Below are positions 20,523 to 61,427 of a DNA stretch of 64,000 bases, one piece after another. Under the pieces are notes generated by a model. That model was not told the DNA's origin, did no database searches, and saw nothing but the letters and a program-made list of their open reading frames with translations. The stretch comes from a virus (taxonomy: Duplodnaviria > Heunggongvirae > Uroviricota > Caudoviricetes): positions 12,132 through 76,131 of the IMG/VR virus record IMGVR_UViG_2778261223_000007; one strand, 5' to 3'. Both the position numbers and the translations under genes were made by a program. Within the stretch, counting starts at the first letter, position 1. Each line of letters starts with the position of its first letter.

Positions 20523-20539
20523 GTTAAATTTCTAACATA
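20523..20539 (+). promoter_or_regulatory. operator-like motif GTTAAATTTCTAACATA
   Basis: Member of the dispersed TTTCTAACA motif family; upstream of RepL-like gene. Confidence 0.5.
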
Positions 20540-21725: not shown

Positions 21726-21744
21726 TATGTTAGAAAATTAATTT
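21726..21744 (-). promoter_or_regulatory. operator-like motif (rc AAATTAATTTTCTAACATA)
   Basis: Motif family member; upstream of immI-like module 1 promoter. Confidence 0.5.
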
Positions 21745-21811
21745 GCTGTTTCTAAATCGGAATGTATGATCTGCATCATCGACTGAAGTCATCCATTGCT
21801 GAAATTTTTAG

Positions 21812-21840
21812 TTGATCTTCCATGTTTTCAGGCTTATATT
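21812..21840 (+). promoter_or_regulatory. sigma70-like promoter (-35 TTGATC, 17-bp spacer, -10 TATATT) for immI-like module 1
   Basis: Seen directly; start site would fall just upstream of the first antisense target repeat. Confidence 0.4.
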
Positions 21841-21996
21841 CATGCCGTCGTAGCAAATTCTGCGACCAGGTTTGACAGCCTGAATGTTAGTGCGGACAAC
21901 CGCAGATTTCCGATATTGCGGTATTTTTGTGTCCGTAAACCGCGTTACGCCCGAATTATGGTGGGGCGTGATGGGGAGGCTTCGGCCTGCTGGTTT

Positions 21997-22016
21997 CACT
22001 AACGCCAGTCTGTCAA
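21997..22016 (+). ncRNA. candidate c4-like antisense RNA core (CACTAAC-N6-CTGTCAA)
   Basis: Complementary to two repeats TTGACAG...GTTAGTG at 21871..21892 and 22039..22075, the second overlapping the RBS of the icd-like ORF. Exact RNA ends unknown. Confidence 0.35.
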
Positions 22017-22086
22017 CCCTGTCACGTCCTGCCACCTGTTTGACAGCGGGTAGCAGGTTGTTAAACCTGTTAGTGAGGCCGTAACT

Positions 22087-22311
22087 ATGGTTAATGCCAA
22101 TCCTTGCTCACGTCCAGAATTCATCTGGCGTTTCCACTCCCTGCAAAAACACTGCGATCACTTCGCAATTGCCGCAACCGAAAAAGAAGCCCGTTCTCTG
22201 ATCCCTGATCAGCATGGTGTTCTTACTGGTCGTTTCTCTACTTCCCCACAACCAAACACTAATCCCTGGTATCGCAATATTACCAATCCCGGCATTGCGG
22301 AGGCACACTGA
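22087..22311 (+). CDS. Icd-like small protein (immI-like module 1)
   Basis: 74 aa; stop overlaps the antirepressor start (TGATG); paralog at 58280..58495 shares the EFIWRF...QKH...AATE.EARS...VEAH pattern. Confidence 0.5.
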   Translation: MVNANPCSRPEFIWRFHSLQKHCDHFAIAATEKEARSLIPDQHGVLTGRFSTSPQPNTNPWYRNITNPGIAEAH

Positions 22312-23018
22312 TGGATATCTGCATTCTTGAAAAGCCATCAATGACCAGCATTGAGATCGCGGAGCTGGTGGGAAAACGTCATGACAATGTGAAGCGTACC
22401 ATTGAAACATTAGCCGAATCCGGCGTTATTGTTCGTCCTCAAATTGAGGATGAACCAAAAATAGATGTAATGGGGCGTTCTCGATTAATTCAGGTGTTCC
22501 GATTTAGCGACGAGCAAGGCAAACGAGACAGCATCATTGTAGTCGCACAGCTTTGTCCTGAGTTTACTGCCCGGCTGGTGGACCGCTGGCGCGAACTGGA
22601 AGAACAAGTACGCCAGCCGTTGACCGAAATAGAGATGATCGCCGCAATGGCTGCAAATGCAGTTCAGCAGCAAAAGCGGCTTCATGCTGTTGAGTCAAAG
22701 GTTAGCCAGGTCGCTGAAACCGTCGAGCAAATCAAGAAGGGCAATATGCCAGATGGCTACATTGGCTACCGCCAGCTGGCGGCGAAATGTGGCCTGACCG
22801 AAGCCAAATGCCGTAACCTGGTTAACGCTTACCGGATTCCCACCGATACACATGAGTTTTTAACTCCAGAGGGGGTATTGTCGCGTCGTTCCATCGTGGC
22901 CTTATCTCCCTTCATGAATGCTTTTAACCGGATGATGTCGGAGGCTGAACACCGAGGAAAACGCTGGTATCACCCCAAAATGGGGCAATTCCAGGTGATC
23001 GGTTGGGGAGGTGAGTGA
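22311..23018 (+). CDS. antirepressor, Rha-family N-terminal domain
   Basis: 235 aa; MTSIEIAELVGKRHDNVKRTIE matches the phage Rha regulatory-protein signature; paralog of 58495..59421. Confidence 0.6.
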   Translation: MDICILEKPSMTSIEIAELVGKRHDNVKRTIETLAESGVIVRPQIEDEPKIDVMGRSRLIQVFRFSDEQGKRDSIIVVAQLCPEFTARLVDRWRELEEQVRQPLTEIEMIAAMAANAVQQQKRLHAVESKVSQVAETVEQIKKGNMPDGYIGYRQLAAKCGLTEAKCRNLVNAYRIPTDTHEFLTPEGVLSRRSIVALSPFMNAFNRMMSEAEHRGKRWYHPKMGQFQVIGWGGE

Positions 23019-23215
23019 TGGACATCATGCAGGCGGTAAAAAAAATCAGGGAAGGACAGGCTGAAGTGTGCCGCCGTAAAGCATGGAGTGTTGGTGTATG
23101 GGCCTGGCCTGATAATTACTCTACTACCGGATGGTTTTGTATTAATGGACTCCAGATCCGGGAAGTTGATTTATCGACGGCTGATATAGTCGGTAATGAT
23201 TGGATCGTGACTTGA
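23015..23215 (+). CDS. small DUF2829-like protein (split-off C-terminal domain of antirepressor)
   Basis: 66 aa, GTG start overlapping upstream stop; aligns with the C-terminus of the fused paralog at 58495..59421; ends DLSTADIVGNDWIVT. Confidence 0.45.
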   Translation: MMDIMQAVKKIREGQAEVCRRKAWSVGVWAWPDNYSTTGWFCINGLQIREVDLSTADIVGNDWIVT

Positions 23216-23223
23216 AGCGTGAT

Positions 23224-23248
23224 GCCCCGGCCTGGCCGGGGCTTTTTT
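23224..23248. terminator. terminator hairpin between convergent genes
   Basis: CCCCGGCC-TGG-CCGGGG followed by CTTTTTTC; a near-identical hairpin occurs after the paralogous antirepressor at 59434..59455. Confidence 0.55.
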
Positions 23249-23733
23249 CATGCCTCATTAGTTGAGGTTGCTGCGTCTCCGACTGGTAACAGAGCGGTAT
23301 TGCGTGGTTCGCCAGCAGGCCAGCGATAGCCAGACACTCTTGATGTTGGGAATGCGCGAATATTAACCGCATCCCCCTGGTTCCCACCCAGGACAAGCAG
23401 ATCGCCATTGGCGCGGCGTCCGACAACGAAGCCTACGTGCCCACCGCCTACACGGGTAAATACAACGATACATCCGTATGCCGGTGTATCTAATTTCTCG
23501 CCCCAATCCAGATAGGATTTTGCCGACTCAAATCTTGTTGAGCGGATGCCTACACGTTCCAGCATTGCACCGACAAATGCTGCGCACCACGGCGTTTCAT
23601 CGTCTTTAATTCCGCCGCGCTTGATGTCGCGCCAGAACTGAACGATTTCAGGGTTGTGTTTAGCGCCTTTTATTTCAGTCAGGCCAATGTGCTTACGGGC
23701 TTCAATTAGCCAGCGAGGTTCAATGTTTGCCAT
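23248..23733 (-). CDS. NlpC/P60-CHAP-like amidase family protein (TIGR02594-like)
   Basis: 161 aa; conserved Cys (TPWCAAFV) and His (GGGHVGFV) arrangement typical of this family (from memory). Confidence 0.5.
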   Translation of the reverse strand: MANIEPRWLIEARKHIGLTEIKGAKHNPEIVQFWRDIKRGGIKDDETPWCAAFVGAMLERVGIRSTRFESAKSYLDWGEKLDTPAYGCIVVFTRVGGGHVGFVVGRRANGDLLVLGGNQGDAVNIRAFPTSRVSGYRWPAGEPRNTALLPVGDAATSTNEA

Positions 23734-32670: not shown

Positions 32671-32689
32671 TATGTTAGAAAACTAATTT
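32671..32689 (-). promoter_or_regulatory. operator-like motif (rc AAATTAGTTTTCTAACATA)
   Basis: Motif family member; 20 bp upstream of the 32711 gene. Confidence 0.5.
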
Positions 32690-35153: not shown

Positions 35154-35229
35154 GATGGTGTAGCTCAGCGGTTAGAGCGGTTGACTGTTAATCAACGGGT
35201 CGATGGTTCAAATCCATCCACCATCGCCA
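35154..35229 (+). tRNA. tRNA-Asn (anticodon GTT)
   Basis: 76 nt; acceptor stem GATGGTG/CACCATC, anticodon loop CTGTTAA, T-loop TTCAAAT, 3' CCA encoded. Confidence 0.85.
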
Positions 35230-35231
35230 AT

Positions 35232-35307
35232 GCCGGTTTAGCTCAGTTGGTAGAGCGCCTGCCTTGTAAGCAGGATGTCAGCGGTTCGAGTCCGTTAATC
35301 GGCACCA
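35232..35307 (+). tRNA. tRNA-Thr (anticodon TGT)
   Basis: 76 nt; GCCGGTTTAGCTCAGTTGGTAGAGC..., anticodon loop CTTGTAA, T-loop TTCGAGT, 3' CCA. Confidence 0.85.
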
Positions 35308-36844: not shown

Positions 36845-36920
36845 GGCCCCTTAGCTCAGTGGTTAGAGCTGGCGACTCATAATCGCACGGTCACCGGTTC
36901 AAGTCCGGTAGGGGCCACCA
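36845..36920 (+). tRNA. tRNA-Ile2 (anticodon CAT, lysidine type) or tRNA-Met
   Basis: 76 nt, near-identical to E. coli ileX over most of its length (GGCCCCTTAGCTCAGTGGTTAGAGC.GGCGACTCATAATCGC...GGTTCAAGTCC...GGGGCCACCA). Confidence 0.85.
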
Positions 36921-38357: not shown

Positions 38358-38374
38358 ATTAATTTTCTAATACA
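38358..38374 (+). promoter_or_regulatory. operator-like variant ATTAATTTTCTAATACA
   Basis: Weaker variant of the motif, upstream of the Lpa-like gene. Confidence 0.3.
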
Positions 38375-42789: not shown

Positions 42790-42807
42790 ATTTAGTTTTC
42801 TAACATA
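42790..42807 (+). promoter_or_regulatory. operator-like motif ATTTAGTTTTCTAACATA
   Basis: Motif family member; overlaps the start region of the minus-strand gene 41740..42777. Confidence 0.5.
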
Positions 42808-44200: not shown

Positions 44201-44218
44201 ATTAAATTTCTAACACAT
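44201..44218 (+). promoter_or_regulatory. operator-like motif ATTAAATTTCTAACACAT
   Basis: Motif family member; immediately after the recombinase stop. Confidence 0.5.
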
Positions 44219-53421: not shown

Positions 53422-53454
53422 ATGTGTTAGAAAACTAAAATCAATGTTCTAACG
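53422..53454 (-). promoter_or_regulatory. paired operator-like motifs in inverted orientation (GTTAGAA ... TTCTAAC, 14 bp apart)
   Basis: Full motif at 53422..53441 plus inverted partial copy at 53444..53454; upstream of the minus-strand operon starting at 53382. Confidence 0.5.
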
Positions 53455-53480
53455 TAATTTTGAGTGCGTAAATGATTTGA

Positions 53481-56810: not shown

Positions 56811-56829
56811 TGTGTTAGAAAATCAATTT
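56811..56829 (-). promoter_or_regulatory. operator-like motif (rc AAATTGATTTTCTAACACA)
   Basis: Motif family member; in the divergent region between 56773 (minus) and ref (plus). Confidence 0.5.
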
Positions 56830-56890: not shown

Positions 56891-57469
56891 ATGCAGAAAC
56901 AGAGCTATTGGGAGAAACAGAGACAAAAAGCCATGCAAAAATTGGCTGACCCAGCCTGGCGAGAGGAACAAAGGGCAAAGTGCCTTCAACAAGCTCAACG
57001 CCAGCAGCAGCGAGCGAGAGAAAAAGCCGCATCGCCTGAATATCGGCAAAAGAAAATTGAAAAAGCAAAGCAATATGAACAGCGGAGAAAAGATAAAGCT
57101 GTATCCGCTCCGTCCAAAAAAACACGCACGTCACGCGGCCTGAAAGGCAGATCACTCACAGCCGATGAACGCCGGATACAGACCGCTATCGGTGCTCTCC
57201 CCTGCATTGCCTGCCATATTCACGGGCAACATAGCCCAGTGGTATCCCTGCACCATATCTTCGGGAGAACGGCAGAGAACGCGCATAAATATGTCCTCCC
57301 TTTGTGTAAATGGCACCACCAGTACGCAGCGCCAGCCGAGGTCCGAGAACAATATCCCTGGCTGGTCCCTGTTCATGCTGACGGAAAAATAGGCGGAAAA
57401 GCAGATTTCATGCGGCACAATGCCGATGAAATGACGTTGTATCAGATGGCGATTGAATTGATAAATTAG
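56891..57469 (+). CDS. ref: HNH endonuclease, Ref-like (recombination enhancement function)
   Basis: 192 aa; basic N-terminus, then ALPCIACHIHG...SLHHIFGRT...LPLCKWHHQ HNH core and the AAPAEVREQYPWLVPVHADG block that I recall from P1 Ref; flanked by operator-like motifs. Confidence 0.7.
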   Translation: MQKQSYWEKQRQKAMQKLADPAWREEQRAKCLQQAQRQQQRAREKAASPEYRQKKIEKAKQYEQRRKDKAVSAPSKKTRTSRGLKGRSLTADERRIQTAIGALPCIACHIHGQHSPVVSLHHIFGRTAENAHKYVLPLCKWHHQYAAPAEVREQYPWLVPVHADGKIGGKADFMRHNADEMTLYQMAIELIN

Positions 57470-57480
57470 TTTTCTAACAT
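57463..57480 (+). promoter_or_regulatory. operator-like motif AAATTAGTTTTCTAACAT
   Basis: Motif family member; overlaps the ref stop. Confidence 0.5.
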
Positions 57481-57968: not shown

Positions 57969-58072
57969 AATACTGACTGTTGCGCCCTGGCATTATCGTG
58001 GGGTATATTTCTACGGCACCTTAGAAAAACGGGTGCCGGGATTGGAACCCCGGATAATGTCAAAGGCGACAC

Positions 58073-58094
58073 AGACGCCGAAAGCGTCTTTTTT
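58073..58094 (+). terminator. rho-independent terminator
   Basis: GACGC-CGAAA-GCGTC followed by TTTTTT. Confidence 0.6.
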
Positions 58095-58139
58095 GTGTCA
58101 TGCCATCGCACAGCCATACGTAGCGTTTAGCTCAGAGAT

Positions 58140-58270
58140 CAATGGTAGTGCTGGCTGGGCTGCCGAAAGGCAGGCCGGTTCCCTTTGACGCCGGTAGTTC
58201 CAACCCAGTCAGTGCTACCGCCATTGAGATTGGAACCTCACGCGGTAGCTCCTTAACTTAGTCAAAGGAG
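58140..58270 (+). ncRNA. candidate c4-like antisense RNA region of immI-like module 2
   Basis: CCTTTGAC at 58182..58189 is complementary to GTCAAAGG at 58261..58268, which overlaps the AAGGAGG RBS of the icd-like ORF; further pairs GTTCCAA/TTGGAAC and GGTAGTGCTG/CAGTGCTACC (with G-U pairs). Confidence 0.25.
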
Positions 58271-58279
58271 GCTGCCAAT

Positions 58280-58495
58280 ATGGCTACTATCCCTACCCCA
58301 ACTCATTCTGAATTTATCTGGCGTTTCTATTCCTGCCAAAAACACCTGTATATCTGCGTCATGGCTGCTACCGAAGCAGAGGCGCGCTCATACCTTCCCG
58401 AAGAACCCTGCATTTTTGCTGCTCGCTTCACTCTTGATGCGATGGAGATCCTCAATTACTGGAATCTGCCGATGAACTGCGTGGAGGCGCACTGA
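58280..58495 (+). CDS. Icd-like small protein (immI-like module 2)
   Basis: 71 aa paralog of 22087..22311; AAGGAGG RBS; stop overlaps antirepressor start. Confidence 0.5.
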   Translation: MATIPTPTHSEFIWRFYSCQKHLYICVMAATEAEARSYLPEEPCIFAARFTLDAMEILNYWNLPMNCVEAH

Positions 58496-59421
58496 TGAAT
58501 CTGTCCATCTCTCAAAAAGCGACAATGACCAGCATTGAGATCGCGGAACTGGTAGGTAAGCGCCCTGATAACGTTAAACGCACCATTGAACACCTGGCGG
58601 AACGGGGCGTAATATCTTTTCCTCAAATTGAGGAAAAGCCCACCGCAGGCCGCCCGGCGAGCTATTACGTCTTTGAAGGCGAACAAGGCAAGCGTGACAG
58701 TATCATTGTCGTCGCACAGCTTTCTCCCGAATTTACCGCCCGGCTGGTGGACCGCTGGCGCGAACTGGAGAATGCCCGGGTACAGTTAAAATCAAAAGCC
58801 GAAATCCTGGCTGAAATGGCGCAAATGCATCTTGAGCATGAACGCCGGATCAACGCCGTTAATGCCCAGGTAGCCGAAGTATCGGCACAAGTGTCCAAAG
58901 TCGCTGAAACCGTCGAGCAAATCAAGAAAGGCAATATTCCGGAAGGCTACATTGGCTACCGCCAGCTGGCGGCGAAATGTGGCCTGACTGAAGCCAAATG
59001 CCGAAACCTGGTTAACGCTTACCGGATTCCCACCGATACGCATGAGTTTTTAACTCCCGATGGTTTGCTTGCGCAACGCTCCATTGTGGCCCTGGCCCCC
59101 TTCCGGAAAGCCTTTAAGCAGGTGATGTCGGAGGCAGAACCACGCAATAAACGCTGGTATCATCCAAAGATGGGGATGTTTCAGGCAATCCACCATCCTG
59201 TGCCTGAAAGTCCAAAGGCAAACCTGTCGTTGCATACCGCCAGAGAGAGGATTAAAACAGGCTATGCAATCGTATGCCGTCGAGCATCCTGGCCTGAAGG
59301 TGTATGGGTGTGGCCCGAAGGTGGATCACGAAAGCACTGGCGCACTATCCGGGATGGGAAAATCCATGCGATTGATTTAGCTCCAGAGGATGTTGTTGCT
59401 ACGGACTGGATTGTTAGTTAA
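58495..59421 (+). CDS. antirepressor: Rha-family N-terminal domain fused to DUF2829-like C-terminal domain
   Basis: 308 aa; N-terminus MTSIEIAELVGKRPDNVKRTIE; C-terminus YAIVCRRASW...DLAPEDVVATDWIVS corresponds to the separate ORF 23015..23215 of module 1. Confidence 0.6.
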   Translation: MNLSISQKATMTSIEIAELVGKRPDNVKRTIEHLAERGVISFPQIEEKPTAGRPASYYVFEGEQGKRDSIIVVAQLSPEFTARLVDRWRELENARVQLKSKAEILAEMAQMHLEHERRINAVNAQVAEVSAQVSKVAETVEQIKKGNIPEGYIGYRQLAAKCGLTEAKCRNLVNAYRIPTDTHEFLTPDGLLAQRSIVALAPFRKAFKQVMSEAEPRNKRWYHPKMGMFQAIHHPVPESPKANLSLHTARERIKTGYAIVCRRASWPEGVWVWPEGGSRKHWRTIRDGKIHAIDLAPEDVVATDWIVS

Positions 59422-60300: not shown

Positions 60301-61134
60301 TCACGAATCTCTCTGACAATTCAGAAACATAAACGCCCGCTTGTCTGTTAAATCCGTAACATAATACTCTCTCATGCCTGTAGGTTTTATTCTACGAGCA
60401 TATACAAACTTATGAACTGGTTGTTTTTCCCCATAACTTACATCAGTCCTAAATTCATCAACCACGCTACCATCTTTTTCAGTTTCCTTTCTCACTAGCT
60501 GATTTTCTAATACAGGCTTTGATTCGTCCATGCCACTAAAAGCATCCTGACCTGTGCTGTTGCCTCGGTTTCCGCGTGGCAAATCCCATGAAAAATAAGT
60601 GCCATAGTCAGTAATCACACGATCCCATGTTCCGGAATCCCCCATATAGTTAGAACGCTCCCCCTTGTAAGTTACAGCCACCTTACAGGCATACGTTTCA
60701 CCATTATTTTTTTTATCATGTCCAGCCATGCTTGCAGGAGTTGCAGGGGAATTATGAATAGATGCGCTTACATCATCTTGCGTTAATTTCTCAACTGGAG
60801 CAAATTCATATATGGGTGTGCCGAGGCTATTTAAATATAACTTATATCTAACCCTAAGCGCACTTCCATCTGAGAATTCATACGTTCCCAGGCATTGGAG
60901 CTTATTGTTTTCTCTTATCTCATTGATCTGATTATAAGCATCAATTACAGAGATTGCTTCCTGCTCGTCCTTCAGCAGTTCATTATAATCATCGATTAAC
61001 ATCTGCCTAGTTTTAGGGGAATTGCAGTCAATTTTGCTAAAATCATAAGCAAAGGTGAGTGTGGGAACAAAAAGAGCAACAACAGTAGCTAGTATTGTTG
61101 AGGAAAATCTTTTTCCATTTTTTATAAAAAACAT
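60301..61134 (-). CDS. secreted protein / putative lipoprotein, hypothetical
   Basis: 277 aa from ATG with GGAG RBS; signal-peptide-like N-terminus; AT-rich gene. Confidence 0.4.
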   Translation of the reverse strand: MFFIKNGKRFSSTILATVVALFVPTLTFAYDFSKIDCNSPKTRQMLIDDYNELLKDEQEAISVIDAYNQINEIRENNKLQCLGTYEFSDGSALRVRYKLYLNSLGTPIYEFAPVEKLTQDDVSASIHNSPATPASMAGHDKKNNGETYACKVAVTYKGERSNYMGDSGTWDRVITDYGTYFSWDLPRGNRGNSTGQDAFSGMDESKPVLENQLVRKETEKDGSVVDEFRTDVSYGEKQPVHKFVYARRIKPTGMREYYVTDLTDKRAFMFLNCQRDS

Positions 61135-61427
61135 TTCATTAACTCCATACCTTACCATCTTAGCCGCGAGCGCGGTCCCTAAAACCATTAACTTCACTGC
61201 ACCGTCCTTCATGCAATCAAAATGACTTTTATGTTATAAAAATAATCAGCCAAATCAACATGATTTAGGCCAAATTTCTGTCAAAAAATAAAATCCACAA
61301 AAAGTGGTTGACACTATTTTGGAAATCACAAACTGCACATAATCCATCGCGCTAACGGCTCCCGTTGAAGGTTCTTTTGACGATTAACTTTCAGCCGAAG
61401 CGCGGTAGGGAGTCATAACGCCAAAGC

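Follow-up and report, generated by a model that had tools for sequence, protein, structure and literature searches.

Introduction

Since 1990, antisense regulation by c4 has counted as a textbook case. In P1 the 5′ end of the C4 RNA is cut by RNase P, and transcription of untranslated icd ends early in a Rho-dependent manner. By base-pairing in the vicinity of the ribosome-binding site, C4 prevents the synthesis of ant (PMC12197685), and Icd is needed for the expression of ant (PMC8201110). For the D6-like plasmids, a c4–icd–antirepressor region plus a second c4/icd region have been published (PMC6799933).

We are confident that the region from 21812 to 23252 of the 64-kb stretch of viral DNA analyzed here (the window) is a bona fide immI cassette of the P1 type, with the specificity of P1, located on a D6-like plasmid prophage. 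The cassette is real but ordinary: a c4 switch with a P1-identical RNA is already known, both of its RNA elements are curated Rfam families and, as a discovery, it is of small weight. Its value is in annotation, as the RNA gene is omitted from the GenBank records of D6 and near-identical plasmids, in which only icd and the Rha-family regulator are listed; in the stretch of the D6 record that was examined there is no c4 RNA annotated.

Results and Discussion

The C4 RNA and its targets

The elements of the cassette and of the region immediately upstream of it are as follows:

21727–21742, plus strand: operator-like 16-mer ATGTTAGAAAATTAAT, a repeated motif with a putative operator function
21812–21840, plus strand: sigma-70 promoter TTGATC-17 nt-TATATT, from a consensus scan; homolog of the P1 promoter P1c4 (formerly P51b)
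21847–21886, plus strand: leader with two hairpins, the second of which shows a1 in or near its loop when folded; matches Rfam c4-a1b1
21872–21878, plus strand: a1, TTGACAG, the same as the annotated a1 of P1; complementary to a′ of C4
21886–21892, plus strand: b1, GTTAGTG, the same as the annotated b1 of P1; complementary to b′ of C4
21900–21928, plus strand: weak terminator-like hairpin (CCGCA/TGCGG stem, 12-nt loop, then TATTTTT), corresponding to the IsrK terminator
21960–22036, plus strand: C4 antisense RNA, 77 nt, 100% identical to the P1 misc_RNA c4 (NC_005856, 48343–48419)
21997–22003, plus strand: b′, CACTAAC, in a hairpin loop of C4
22010–22016, plus strand: a′, CTGTCAA, unpaired in C4
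22040–22046, plus strand: a2, TTGACAG, the same as the annotated a2 of P1; in the leader of the icd mRNA, where C4 a′ is predicted to pair
22069–22078, plus strand: b2 with the Shine-Dalgarno sequence, GTTAGTGAGG; the same as the annotated b2 of P1, GTTAGTGA
22087–22311, plus strand: icd-like ORF, 74 aa; NCBIfam phage_ICD_like NF033153 at 40.3 bits (cut-off 25)
22311–23018, plus strand: Rha-family protein, 235 aa, putative antirepressor; Pfam Phage_pRha at 37.2 bits (cut-off 29.9)
23015–23215, plus strand: 66-aa ORF, the last gene of the operon, overlapping the preceding ORF; PHROG 7385 at 1.8e-49
23224–23252, plus strand: intrinsic terminator, with an 8-bp stem made up entirely of G:C pairs and then a T run, from a terminator scan; closes the operon

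An earlier note on this DNA had described the promoter, an upstream repeat TTGACAG-N7-GTTAGTG, a complementary segment CACTAAC-N6-CTGTCAA, a second copy of the repeat with its GTTAGTG half on the ribosome-binding site of icd, and an icd stop overlapping the antirepressor start, and inspection of the sequence located every one of these elements where the note had placed them. The note had also recognized the architecture of the P1/P7 c4 antisense system and named a search with the covariance model of the c4 family as a way of checking it; that search bore the architecture out, since Rfam C4 (RF01695) matched over its full length (1–87 of 87) at 21954–22039, with 68.8 bits versus a gathering score of 45. 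The leader likewise matched Rfam c4-a1b1 (RF03163) over 21834–21886, at 54.4 bits versus a gathering score of 46.7. Taken with the fold of the core, these scores place the ensemble of elements far beyond chance. The assignment to the P1 type rests on direct observations, namely the identity of C4 and its targets to those of P1, the fold, the matches to both RNA families and a strict three-way covariation. Across 21827–22198 the window and P1 immI are 93.3% identical, and the two occurrences of TTGACAG on the plus strand of the window are both inside the cassette.

The layout of C4 comprises a long closing stem, a small hairpin, the b′ loop and a single-stranded a′. The spacing between b′ and a′ is 6 nt, that between a1 and b1 is 7 nt, and the b′–a′ pair is the exact reverse complement of both repeat halves. 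The 77-nt core had a minimum free energy (MFE) of −42.2 kcal/mol (z = −4.7), and both the MFE and the centroid folds had positions 21995–22003 in a loop and 22010–22016 unpaired. When the 250-nt RNA from leader through c4 to the targets was folded in full, its MFE structure had the a1 region paired with the a2–b2 spacer, a pairing on which we did not build because it has no supporting covariation. As the mature C4 sequence and at least 60 nt on each side of it are identical or nearly identical to P1, processing of C4 in the manner of P1 is to be expected.

The GTTAGTG of b2 (22069–22075) is followed by AGG and then by the icd ATG at 22087, and b2 together with the Shine-Dalgarno sequence can form 10 bp with the b′ loop region of C4, UUUCACUAAC, thereby covering the icd ribosome-binding site. 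The predicted energy of this b′ loop–b2 duplex was −15.1 kcal/mol, versus −5.3 kcal/mol for the corresponding target in a second c4 module of the window (module 2, near 58.1 kb), whose recognition sequences differ from those of P1. Overall, the cognate loop–target duplexes ranged from −8.7 to −15.1 kcal/mol, versus −1.2 to −6.4 kcal/mol for the other c4 module.

Icd and the downstream genes

Over 61 aa, the Icd-like protein and P1 Icd are 61% identical. At the DNA level similarity to P1 stops in the middle of icd, near 22198, the first half of the gene being near-identical and the second half different. When a genome collection with one genome per species was scanned with Icd, one weak and irrelevant match was returned. 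The icd TGA runs into the ATG with which the following ORF starts at 22311 (ATGA; ..CACTGATGG.., at 22309–22313), an arrangement that would suit translational coupling of icd to the gene downstream.

That gene encodes the 235-aa Rha-family protein, which the earlier note named an antirepressor. Supporting the name are its family and a match to PHROG 63, ‘anti-repressor Ant’, at 6e-47, and orf18 of D6 is annotated as a putative anti-repressor. The protein is nonetheless without similarity to P1 Ant1 by BLASTP (E = 0.31) and without detectable similarity to Ant1/2; as it is not homologous to these proteins, we designate its antirepressor role as putative, at the level of annotation. Judging from annotation, it may be the antirepressor of a D6-type C1 repressor. 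The 66-aa ORF that follows is homologous to the C-terminal end of the 308-aa protein of module 2, with 40% identity to its last 65 residues (244–308).

Promoter and upstream region

The match of the promoter to the consensus is not in itself significant, since there were two such sites in 1.8 kb versus 2.1 expected. Every column of the promoter aligns with that annotated in P1, TTGACC-17-TATAGT, and the consensus scan revealed no further promoter-like site between it and icd. It would be expected to give a single transcript that runs from the leader through c4 and icd into the downstream genes.

Upstream of the −35 there is no alignment with P1, and the P1 elements Op51 and P51a are absent. 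The consensus of the P1 C1 operator, ATTGCTCTAATAAATTT, had no match at ≤3 mismatches in the whole window, and on this basis control of the operon by a C1 of the P1 type was rejected. The place analogous to Op51 is occupied by a different repeated 16-mer (21727–21742; also given as ATGTTAGAAAAYTAAT) that occurs 11 times in the window with ≤3 mismatches versus 1.1 expected, other copies of which are upstream of repL-like and ref-like genes. It adjoins a weak −35-like TTGCTG (21743–21748), with TATGAT at 21765–21770. This 16-mer may be the D6-type counterpart of Op51. A 303-aa ORF beside an operator-like site (60304–61212, minus strand) was considered as the C1 repressor and rejected, being SimB-like. 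The c1 gene was not located within the window and may lie outside it.

Diversity of the recognition elements

Among 36 distinct cassettes, the a1–a′ pairing was kept in all 36 (100%), with double-sided changes at both of its variable positions. The b1–b′ pairing was also kept in 100%, even though six of its seven pairs vary, always on both sides, and the a′–a2 pairing in 100% with compensatory changes; for b′–b2, 99.7% of cells were paired. All eight variable recognition positions change on both sides and at all three copies, whereas in slid controls only 32–50% of cells were paired.

A scan of viral contigs with a pattern of the C4 scaffold that had six free loop positions identified at least 119 loci, and matching plasmids in PLSDB number ~580. 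The cassettes with a P1 scaffold have two a alleles (TTGACAG and TTAGCAG) and six b allele cores (GTTAGT, GATTGT, ACTTAC, ACGAAT, GTACAT and ACTTGT), and 11 of the 12 possible a × b combinations were seen. In 91 distinct longer cassettes, all 11 of these combinations were perfectly complementary at the three copies. Per site, the recognition elements are ~14 times more divergent than the rest of the cassette.

The recognition loops constitute a hypervariable 2 × 6 allele set that is common to P1-like and D6-like backbones. We tentatively suggest, while regarding it as the less probable view, that the recognition elements of P1-scaffold c4 systems are a combinatorial immunity barcode, matched at three sites and common to otherwise unrelated P1-like and D6-like backbones. 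Because the elements are in the order a1 b1 .. b′ a′ .. a2 b2, reassortment of a and b needs three crossovers within spacers of 6–22 nt or many coordinated point changes, and this requirement would imply strong diversifying selection together with viable intermediates, L074 being an example of a mismatched cassette. No description of the barcode pattern was found in the searchable literature, the primary papers on P1 and the paper on the D6 genome lying outside this scope. For the study of how RNA–RNA specificities that span several sites diversify, the population-level pattern of these alleles could be a natural source of data.

Proposed mode of action

By analogy with P1, the constitutive promoter at 21812–21840 would produce one RNA containing the a1/b1 leader, c4, a2/b2, icd, the Rha-family gene and the 66-aa ORF, and the 77-nt C4 would be excised from this common transcript. 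C4 would then act in trans, on copies of this transcript made later, with its single-stranded a′ pairing to a2 and its b′ loop pairing to b2 and the Shine-Dalgarno sequence, and these pairings would block translation of icd. The gene downstream, which should depend on icd translation because its start is within the icd stop codon (ATGA), would be silenced together with icd. The antirepressor would as a result be kept off, so that lysogeny would be maintained and superinfection immunity would depend on specificity. We infer the RNA processing, trans action, translational block, coupling and polarity from what is established for P1, and by the same analogy the Rha-family putative antirepressor would be the gene that C4 ultimately controls.

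The leader and alternative explanations

The role of a1/b1 in the leader is annotated as only ‘putative’ in P1. Since a1/b1 covary with C4 as strictly as the targets do, the pairing of C4 with the leader may itself be essential, and its role could be that of a decoy or of a termination switch. Between b1 and c4 is the terminator-like hairpin (21900–21928), which was not called by a simple terminator scan because its loop exceeds 8 nt and which, given that c4 sits downstream of it, is probably leaky.

It is possible, though we consider it unlikely, that, alongside the classical mechanism, a short IsrK-like RNA ending at 21900–21928 is made from the leader, and that a1/b1 in this RNA bind C4 (or the C4 part of long transcripts) and relieve the repression of icd and the antirepressor, as an anti-antisense decoy. 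In keeping with such a role, short IsrK supplied in trans in Gifsy-1 raises translation of orf45 and the coupled anrP >100-fold, and a processed RNA of ~80 nt is found downstream of IsrK (PMC4825925). The isrK covariance model (RF01394) also covers 21847–21928 of the window, terminator included, with E = 7e-8 in a local search, and module 2 has a full IsrK match (62.7 bits at 58016–58094) with a canonical terminator. The score in module 1, the cassette described here, is however under the gathering threshold of the family (43.5 versus 50 bits), the 12-nt loop and interrupted U run mean that the hairpin may not terminate, and a short leader RNA of P1 is undocumented in the literature examined. 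The strict covariation of a1/b1 with a′/b′ would fit both this explanation and the following one.

Somewhat more doubtful is that the pairing of C4 with a1/b1 controls termination in the leader, as the P4 CI RNA does with seqA/seqC, and so autoregulates c4 and the operon. A small hairpin, GCGG-ACAA-CCGC (21892–21903), can form from the end of b1 (G21892) at the expense of the 5′ arm of the terminator-like stem (21900–21904), and C4 binding could therefore switch the fold of the leader. These competing hairpins were seen both in the sequence and in the leader fold, an overlap of similar topology was noted by eye, without folding, in module 2, and the same possibility was raised for STnc1160 by the authors of the IsrK study (PMC4825925). 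The proposal is, however, a purely structural one. The alternative stems show no covariation, because the leader is almost invariant, and in one divergent cassette (L134) the small hairpin itself precedes the U run, so that the sign of the effect would differ.

The earlier note had described the recognition sequences as different from those of P1/P7; for module 1, we consider a c4-like system with such heptamers and a new immunity specificity highly improbable. The architecture is indeed of the c4 type, other specificities exist among relatives, and module 2 has different elements; alignment with the annotated P1 record nevertheless refutes the claim, as the full 77-nt RNA and each of the six elements match P1 base for base. 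In addition, the allele pair of module 1 (a = GA, b = GTTAGT) is already present in 13 of the 91 distinct cassettes and is the third commonest of the 11 combinations. That C4 is a protein (an ORF of 66 aa does exist at 21884–22084, and the old P1 record X15639 has c4 as a CDS, the historical reading) or that the heptamer complementarity is coincidental has next to no likelihood, and both were rejected on the RNA-model score, the stable conserved fold and compensatory changes at three sites that indicate an RNA–RNA interaction, in agreement with the current P1 annotation and literature that define c4 as a 77-nt RNA (PMC12197685).

Comparison with known systems

One parallel is the P4 CI RNA with seqA/seqC, likewise an immunity RNA that is processed from an untranslated transcript and pairs both up- and downstream of itself (summarized in PMC4825925). 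It differs in that it acts by premature transcription termination of replication genes, and it has been likened to C4 by description, not by sequence. The IsrK–orf45–AnrP region of Gifsy-1 shares with the cassette a two-hairpin leader with a terminator, a processed RNA and a small ORF that is AUGA-coupled to an antirepressor-like gene (PMC4825925), but activation there is by a short leader RNA, in contrast to repression by a processed RNA.

P7 immI has the same cassette and scaffold, with 89% identity over 372 nt, and differs in its recognition elements (a = TTAGCAG, b = GATTGTG), which are matched by changes in its C4; following the rules known from P1 and P7, P7 would be heteroimmune to the window element at immI. 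The backbone and gene order of the window (portal, protease, repL, icd, anti-repressor, orf17, hydrolase, darB in D6) recur in phage D6 (MF356679) and in D6-like plasmid prophages, for example pYU39_89, and the whole 1.4-kb module is 92.8% identical. They also have the same Icd and Rha-type putative anti-repressor, with two c4/icd regions per genome (PMC6799933). D6 itself differs in having its own b allele (ACTTACG/CGTAAGT at b1, b′ and b2), its a being TTGACAG. The record NZ_AP018804 is 99.3% identical to the plasmid of the window.

The closest system at the level of the RNA is P1 immI (c4–icd–ant1/ant2), in which the 77-nt C4 and a1, b1, a′, b′, a2 and b2 are all identical to those of the window, the promoter P1c4/P51b is homologous, b2 is on the icd ribosome-binding site, Icd is a homolog, and the icd stop overlaps the next start. 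The differences, which lie outside the RNA cassette, are that the window cassette is without the C1 operator Op51 and P51a, the sequence upstream of its −35 being unrelated; that it controls the Rha-family protein and the 66-aa ORF where P1 controls Ant1/Ant2; and that repL is upstream of the cassette in the window and downstream in P1. We therefore predict that the D6-like prophage and P1 have a common immI specificity despite their different main repressor–operator systems, and that their C4 RNAs should, as a consequence, be interchangeable.

Elements and family assignment of module 1

Module 1, the c4/icd/Rha-type cassette, has a leader copy of two recognition elements (a1/b1), a C4 RNA bearing the elements b' and a', and a target copy (a2/b2) in the icd mRNA leader.

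Elements of module 1. The promoter, the six recognition elements and the icd-like ORF come from sequence reading; a1, b1, a2 and b2 equal misc_binding features of the P1 record.
21812–21840, +, promoter TTGATC-17 nt-TATATT, homolog of P1c4 (former P51b)
21872–21878, +, a1 TTGACAG
21886–21892, +, b1 GTTAGTG
21900–21928, hairpin with U run directly 3' of b1, aligned by the IsrK model as its own terminator
21960–22036, C4 RNA, 77 nt
21997–22003, +, b' CACTAAC
22010–22016, +, a' CTGTCAA
22040–22046, +, a2 TTGACAG
22069–22075, +, b2 GTTAGTG, then AGG, with the ATG at 22087
22087–22311, +, icd-like ORF, 74 codons, its TGA overlapping the next ATG (ATGA)
22311–23018, Rha-family ORF, 235 codons (Pfam Phage_pRha, 37.2 bits; PHROG 63 'anti-repressor Ant', 6e-47)
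23015–23215, 66-aa ORF overlapping the Rha-family gene, last of the operon before the terminator
23224–23252, strong intrinsic terminator, operon end

The whole window was scanned with Rfam at the gathering threshold and then locally at a permissive threshold. The C4 antisense RNA family (RF01695) matched at 21954–22039 with 68.8 bits (threshold 45) and the c4 a1/b1 target family (RF03163) at 21834–21886 with 54.4 bits (46.7), while the local permissive scan gave a sub-threshold IsrK match at 21847–21928 (43.5 vs. 50 bits). The two former matches uphold the P1/P7 c4 architecture claimed in the earlier note, which had proposed the covariance-model search, and the elements listed there (promoter, both repeats, complementary core, b2 on the icd RBS and stop/start overlap) were all present on reading the sequence. 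The b'/a' pair is the exact reverse complement of both repeat halves, and a pattern search of the window's + strand found TTGACAG at a1 and a2 only. The promoter consensus alone occurs at chance level (2 sites in 1.8 kb vs. 2.1 expected); the module 1 promoter aligns with the annotated P1c4 (TTGACC-17-TATAGT in P1). The 77-mer folded as expected, with a long closing stem, a small hairpin, b' in a loop and a' single-stranded (MFE −42.2 kcal/mol, z = −4.7 vs. shuffles).

Covariation and variability of the recognition elements

Related loci were collected via Icd (23 D6-like) and via a pattern that fixed the C4 scaffold and left the loops free (>80); 91 distinct cassettes among them had flanks of 260 nt on the 5' side and 700 nt on the 3' side. 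These carried the a element in two alleles and the b element in six, in 11 combinations, and in every combination a1 = a2 = rc(a') and b1 = b2 = rc(b'). In an alignment of 36 distinct sequences, standard pairs made up 100% of a1-a', b1-b' and a'-a2 and 99.7% of the 10-bp b'-b2/SD helix, all of the variable positions (8/8) changed on both sides, and slid controls paired in 32–50% of cells. In-silico evidence of RNA–RNA interaction does not get stronger than this covariation, which supports the leader copy a1/b1 and the true translational target equally. The C4 stems had almost no informative variation because the sampled relatives share the P1 scaffold by construction.

In the same alignment (loci L004–L149, equivalent to window 21861–22093), the 24 variable recognition positions were 14 times more divergent per site than the 208 others (0.52 vs. 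0.036), a figure to be read with the 34 scaffold positions that the search pattern had fixed. Eleven of the 12 possible combinations were seen, always matched at the three sites, and P1-type and D6-type backbones carry the same specificities. Outside the recognition positions, two loci of unlike specificity (L018 and L106) had 0 differences, and the window cassette and L042, also unlike, had 1. The sole mismatched cassette (L074:4686–4918, on the 4.9-kb contig IMGVR_UViG_2565956613_000015) carries ACGAAT-type b1 and b' with a GTTAGT-type b2; it could be the natural product of one crossover, for which derepression is predicted, or a chimera assembled from two co-resident plasmids.

A second module and the replicon

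A second immI-like module (module 2), a paralog with a specificity of its own, lies at 58016–59421.

Elements of module 2.
58016–58094, IsrK-family leader, 62.7 bits
58042–58048, a1 TTGGAAC
58059–58066, b1 GTCAAAGG
58074–58094, canonical terminator
58138–58225, C4, 77.1 bits
58182–58189, b' CCTTTGAC
58197–58203, a' GTTCCAA
58230–58236, a2
58261–58268, b2, on the SD AAGGAGG
58280–58495, icd-like ORF, 45% identical to module 1 Icd
58495–59421, Rha-type protein, 308 aa, 66% identical to the module 1 protein

Cognate loop–target duplexes (−8.7 to −15.1 kcal/mol) were calculated to be stronger than those to module 2 (−1.2 to −6.4 kcal/mol), which argues that the modules should be orthogonal. The Rha-type gene is split in module 1, where the 235-aa and overlapping 66-aa ORFs (22311–23215) jointly correspond to the single 308-aa protein (58495–59421), the 66-aa ORF being 40% identical to its residues 244–308; D6 has the same split (orf18 and orf17).

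The host replicon belongs among the D6-like plasmid prophages. Over its full 1.4 kb, module 1 shares 92.8% identity with phage D6 and as much as 99.3% with E. coli and Salmonella plasmids of ~92 kb; at least 80% of its length is covered in 110 plasmids. In gene order and sizes, its surroundings agree with D6 (portal, protease, RepL-like, icd, putative anti-repressor and the small ORF next), and the match continues through a peptidoglycan hydrolase on the other strand and a DarB-like gene. Three + strand tRNA genes (35154–35226, 35232–35304 and 36845–36917; Rfam tRNA, 66–75 bits) were identified, and a tRNA region has been described for D6-like plasmids (PMC6799933).

The window has 11 sites of the asymmetric 16-mer ATGTTAGAAAAYTAAT (1.1 expected), five on the + strand (21727–21742, 32672–32687, 53424–53439, 56812–56827 and 61231–61246) and six on the − strand (20523–20538, 38358–38373, 42791–42806, 44201–44216, 53440–53455 and 57465–57480), with 53424–53439(+) and 53440–53455(−) forming an inverted pair. 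Most of the sites are intergenic and precede genes, the repL-like and ref-like ones and the c4 operon among them; the copy at 21727–21742 is just upstream of the module 1 operon. In P1, the repL and ref genes are C1-controlled. The 16-mer is a candidate operator of a D6-type C1 repressor. A 303-aa ORF at 60301–61212 (−), adjoining an operator-like site, was considered as that repressor and rejected: it is 99.7% identical to the D6 'putative superimmunity accessory function protein', and its residues 57–148 are 48% identical to P1 SimB/SimC.

Proposed mechanism

Sequence, fold, family membership and covariation are demonstrated here; the mechanism is proposed by analogy with P1. Papers by Citron, Schuster, Biere and Hartmann are reportedly a further basis for C4 excision, pairing in trans, coupling and Rho polarity in P1. 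A single transcript would start at the promoter, and C4 would be excised from it; in trans, a' would pair with a2, and b' with b2 and the Shine-Dalgarno, blocking icd translation (P1 mechanism: PMC12197685, PMC8201110, PMC8546580). As in P1, the 5' end of C4 would be made by RNase P. The gene after icd, translationally coupled to it, would be silenced together with it, and the untranslated icd RNA would undergo premature Rho-dependent termination. The Rha-family protein, judging from annotation alone, would inactivate the D6-type main repressor.

The P1 record annotates the a1/b1 sites as 'putative', and two non-exclusive additions to this classical model are made plausible by the U-run hairpin after b1, aligned by the IsrK model as a terminator, and by findings in Gifsy-1. 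There, the short IsrK RNA activates in trans the translation of a small ORF and, coupled to it, an antirepressor-like gene; further downstream is a processed RNA of ~80 nt, and a P4 CI-like influence on termination is considered by the authors (PMC4825925). The activation in trans would favor titration of C4 by the leader RNA, and the termination effect C4-dependent control of leader termination; we give each of the two additions a fairly low probability.

Comparison with known systems

The module 1 c4 system is already known, since both RNA families, C4 and c4-a1b1, are curated entries (Weinberg et al. 2010, PMC2864571), its RNA is that of P1, and homologs of c4, icd and an antirepressor, plus a second c4/icd region, have been published for D6-like plasmids (PMC6799933). 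Public collections hold sequences 100% identical over 21812–22100.

The window was aligned with the annotated P1, P7 and D6 records and the annotated sites were extracted. Positions 21827–22198 are 93.3% identical to the P1 immI region (megablast), and the C4 RNA is identical at 77/77 positions. Because C4 and all four sites are those of P1, the 'different recognition sequences' of the earlier note are wrong for module 1; it is P7 (TTAGCAG/GATTGTG) and, in b, D6 (TTGACAG/ACTTACG) that differ. What sets module 1 apart from P1 is found outside the RNA cassette. The stretch 5' of the −35 resembles D6 and gave no alignment with P1, and a P1-type C1 operator had no match anywhere in the 64-kb window. 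Icd is 61% identical to that of P1 overall, its N-terminal half being nearly identical, and the downstream Rha-family protein has no similarity to P1 Ant1/2 (E = 0.31). A mosaic junction lies inside icd at ~22198, where DNA similarity to P1 and P7 stops mid-gene; P1-like and D6-like elements share the whole RNA cassette and the Icd N-terminal half, but not the C-terminal half and downstream sequence. Module 1 thus belongs to immI at the RNA level and departs from it at the protein (Ant1/2) and operator (Op51) levels, and is best described as a P1 c4 cassette grafted onto another antirepressor and another repressor circuit.
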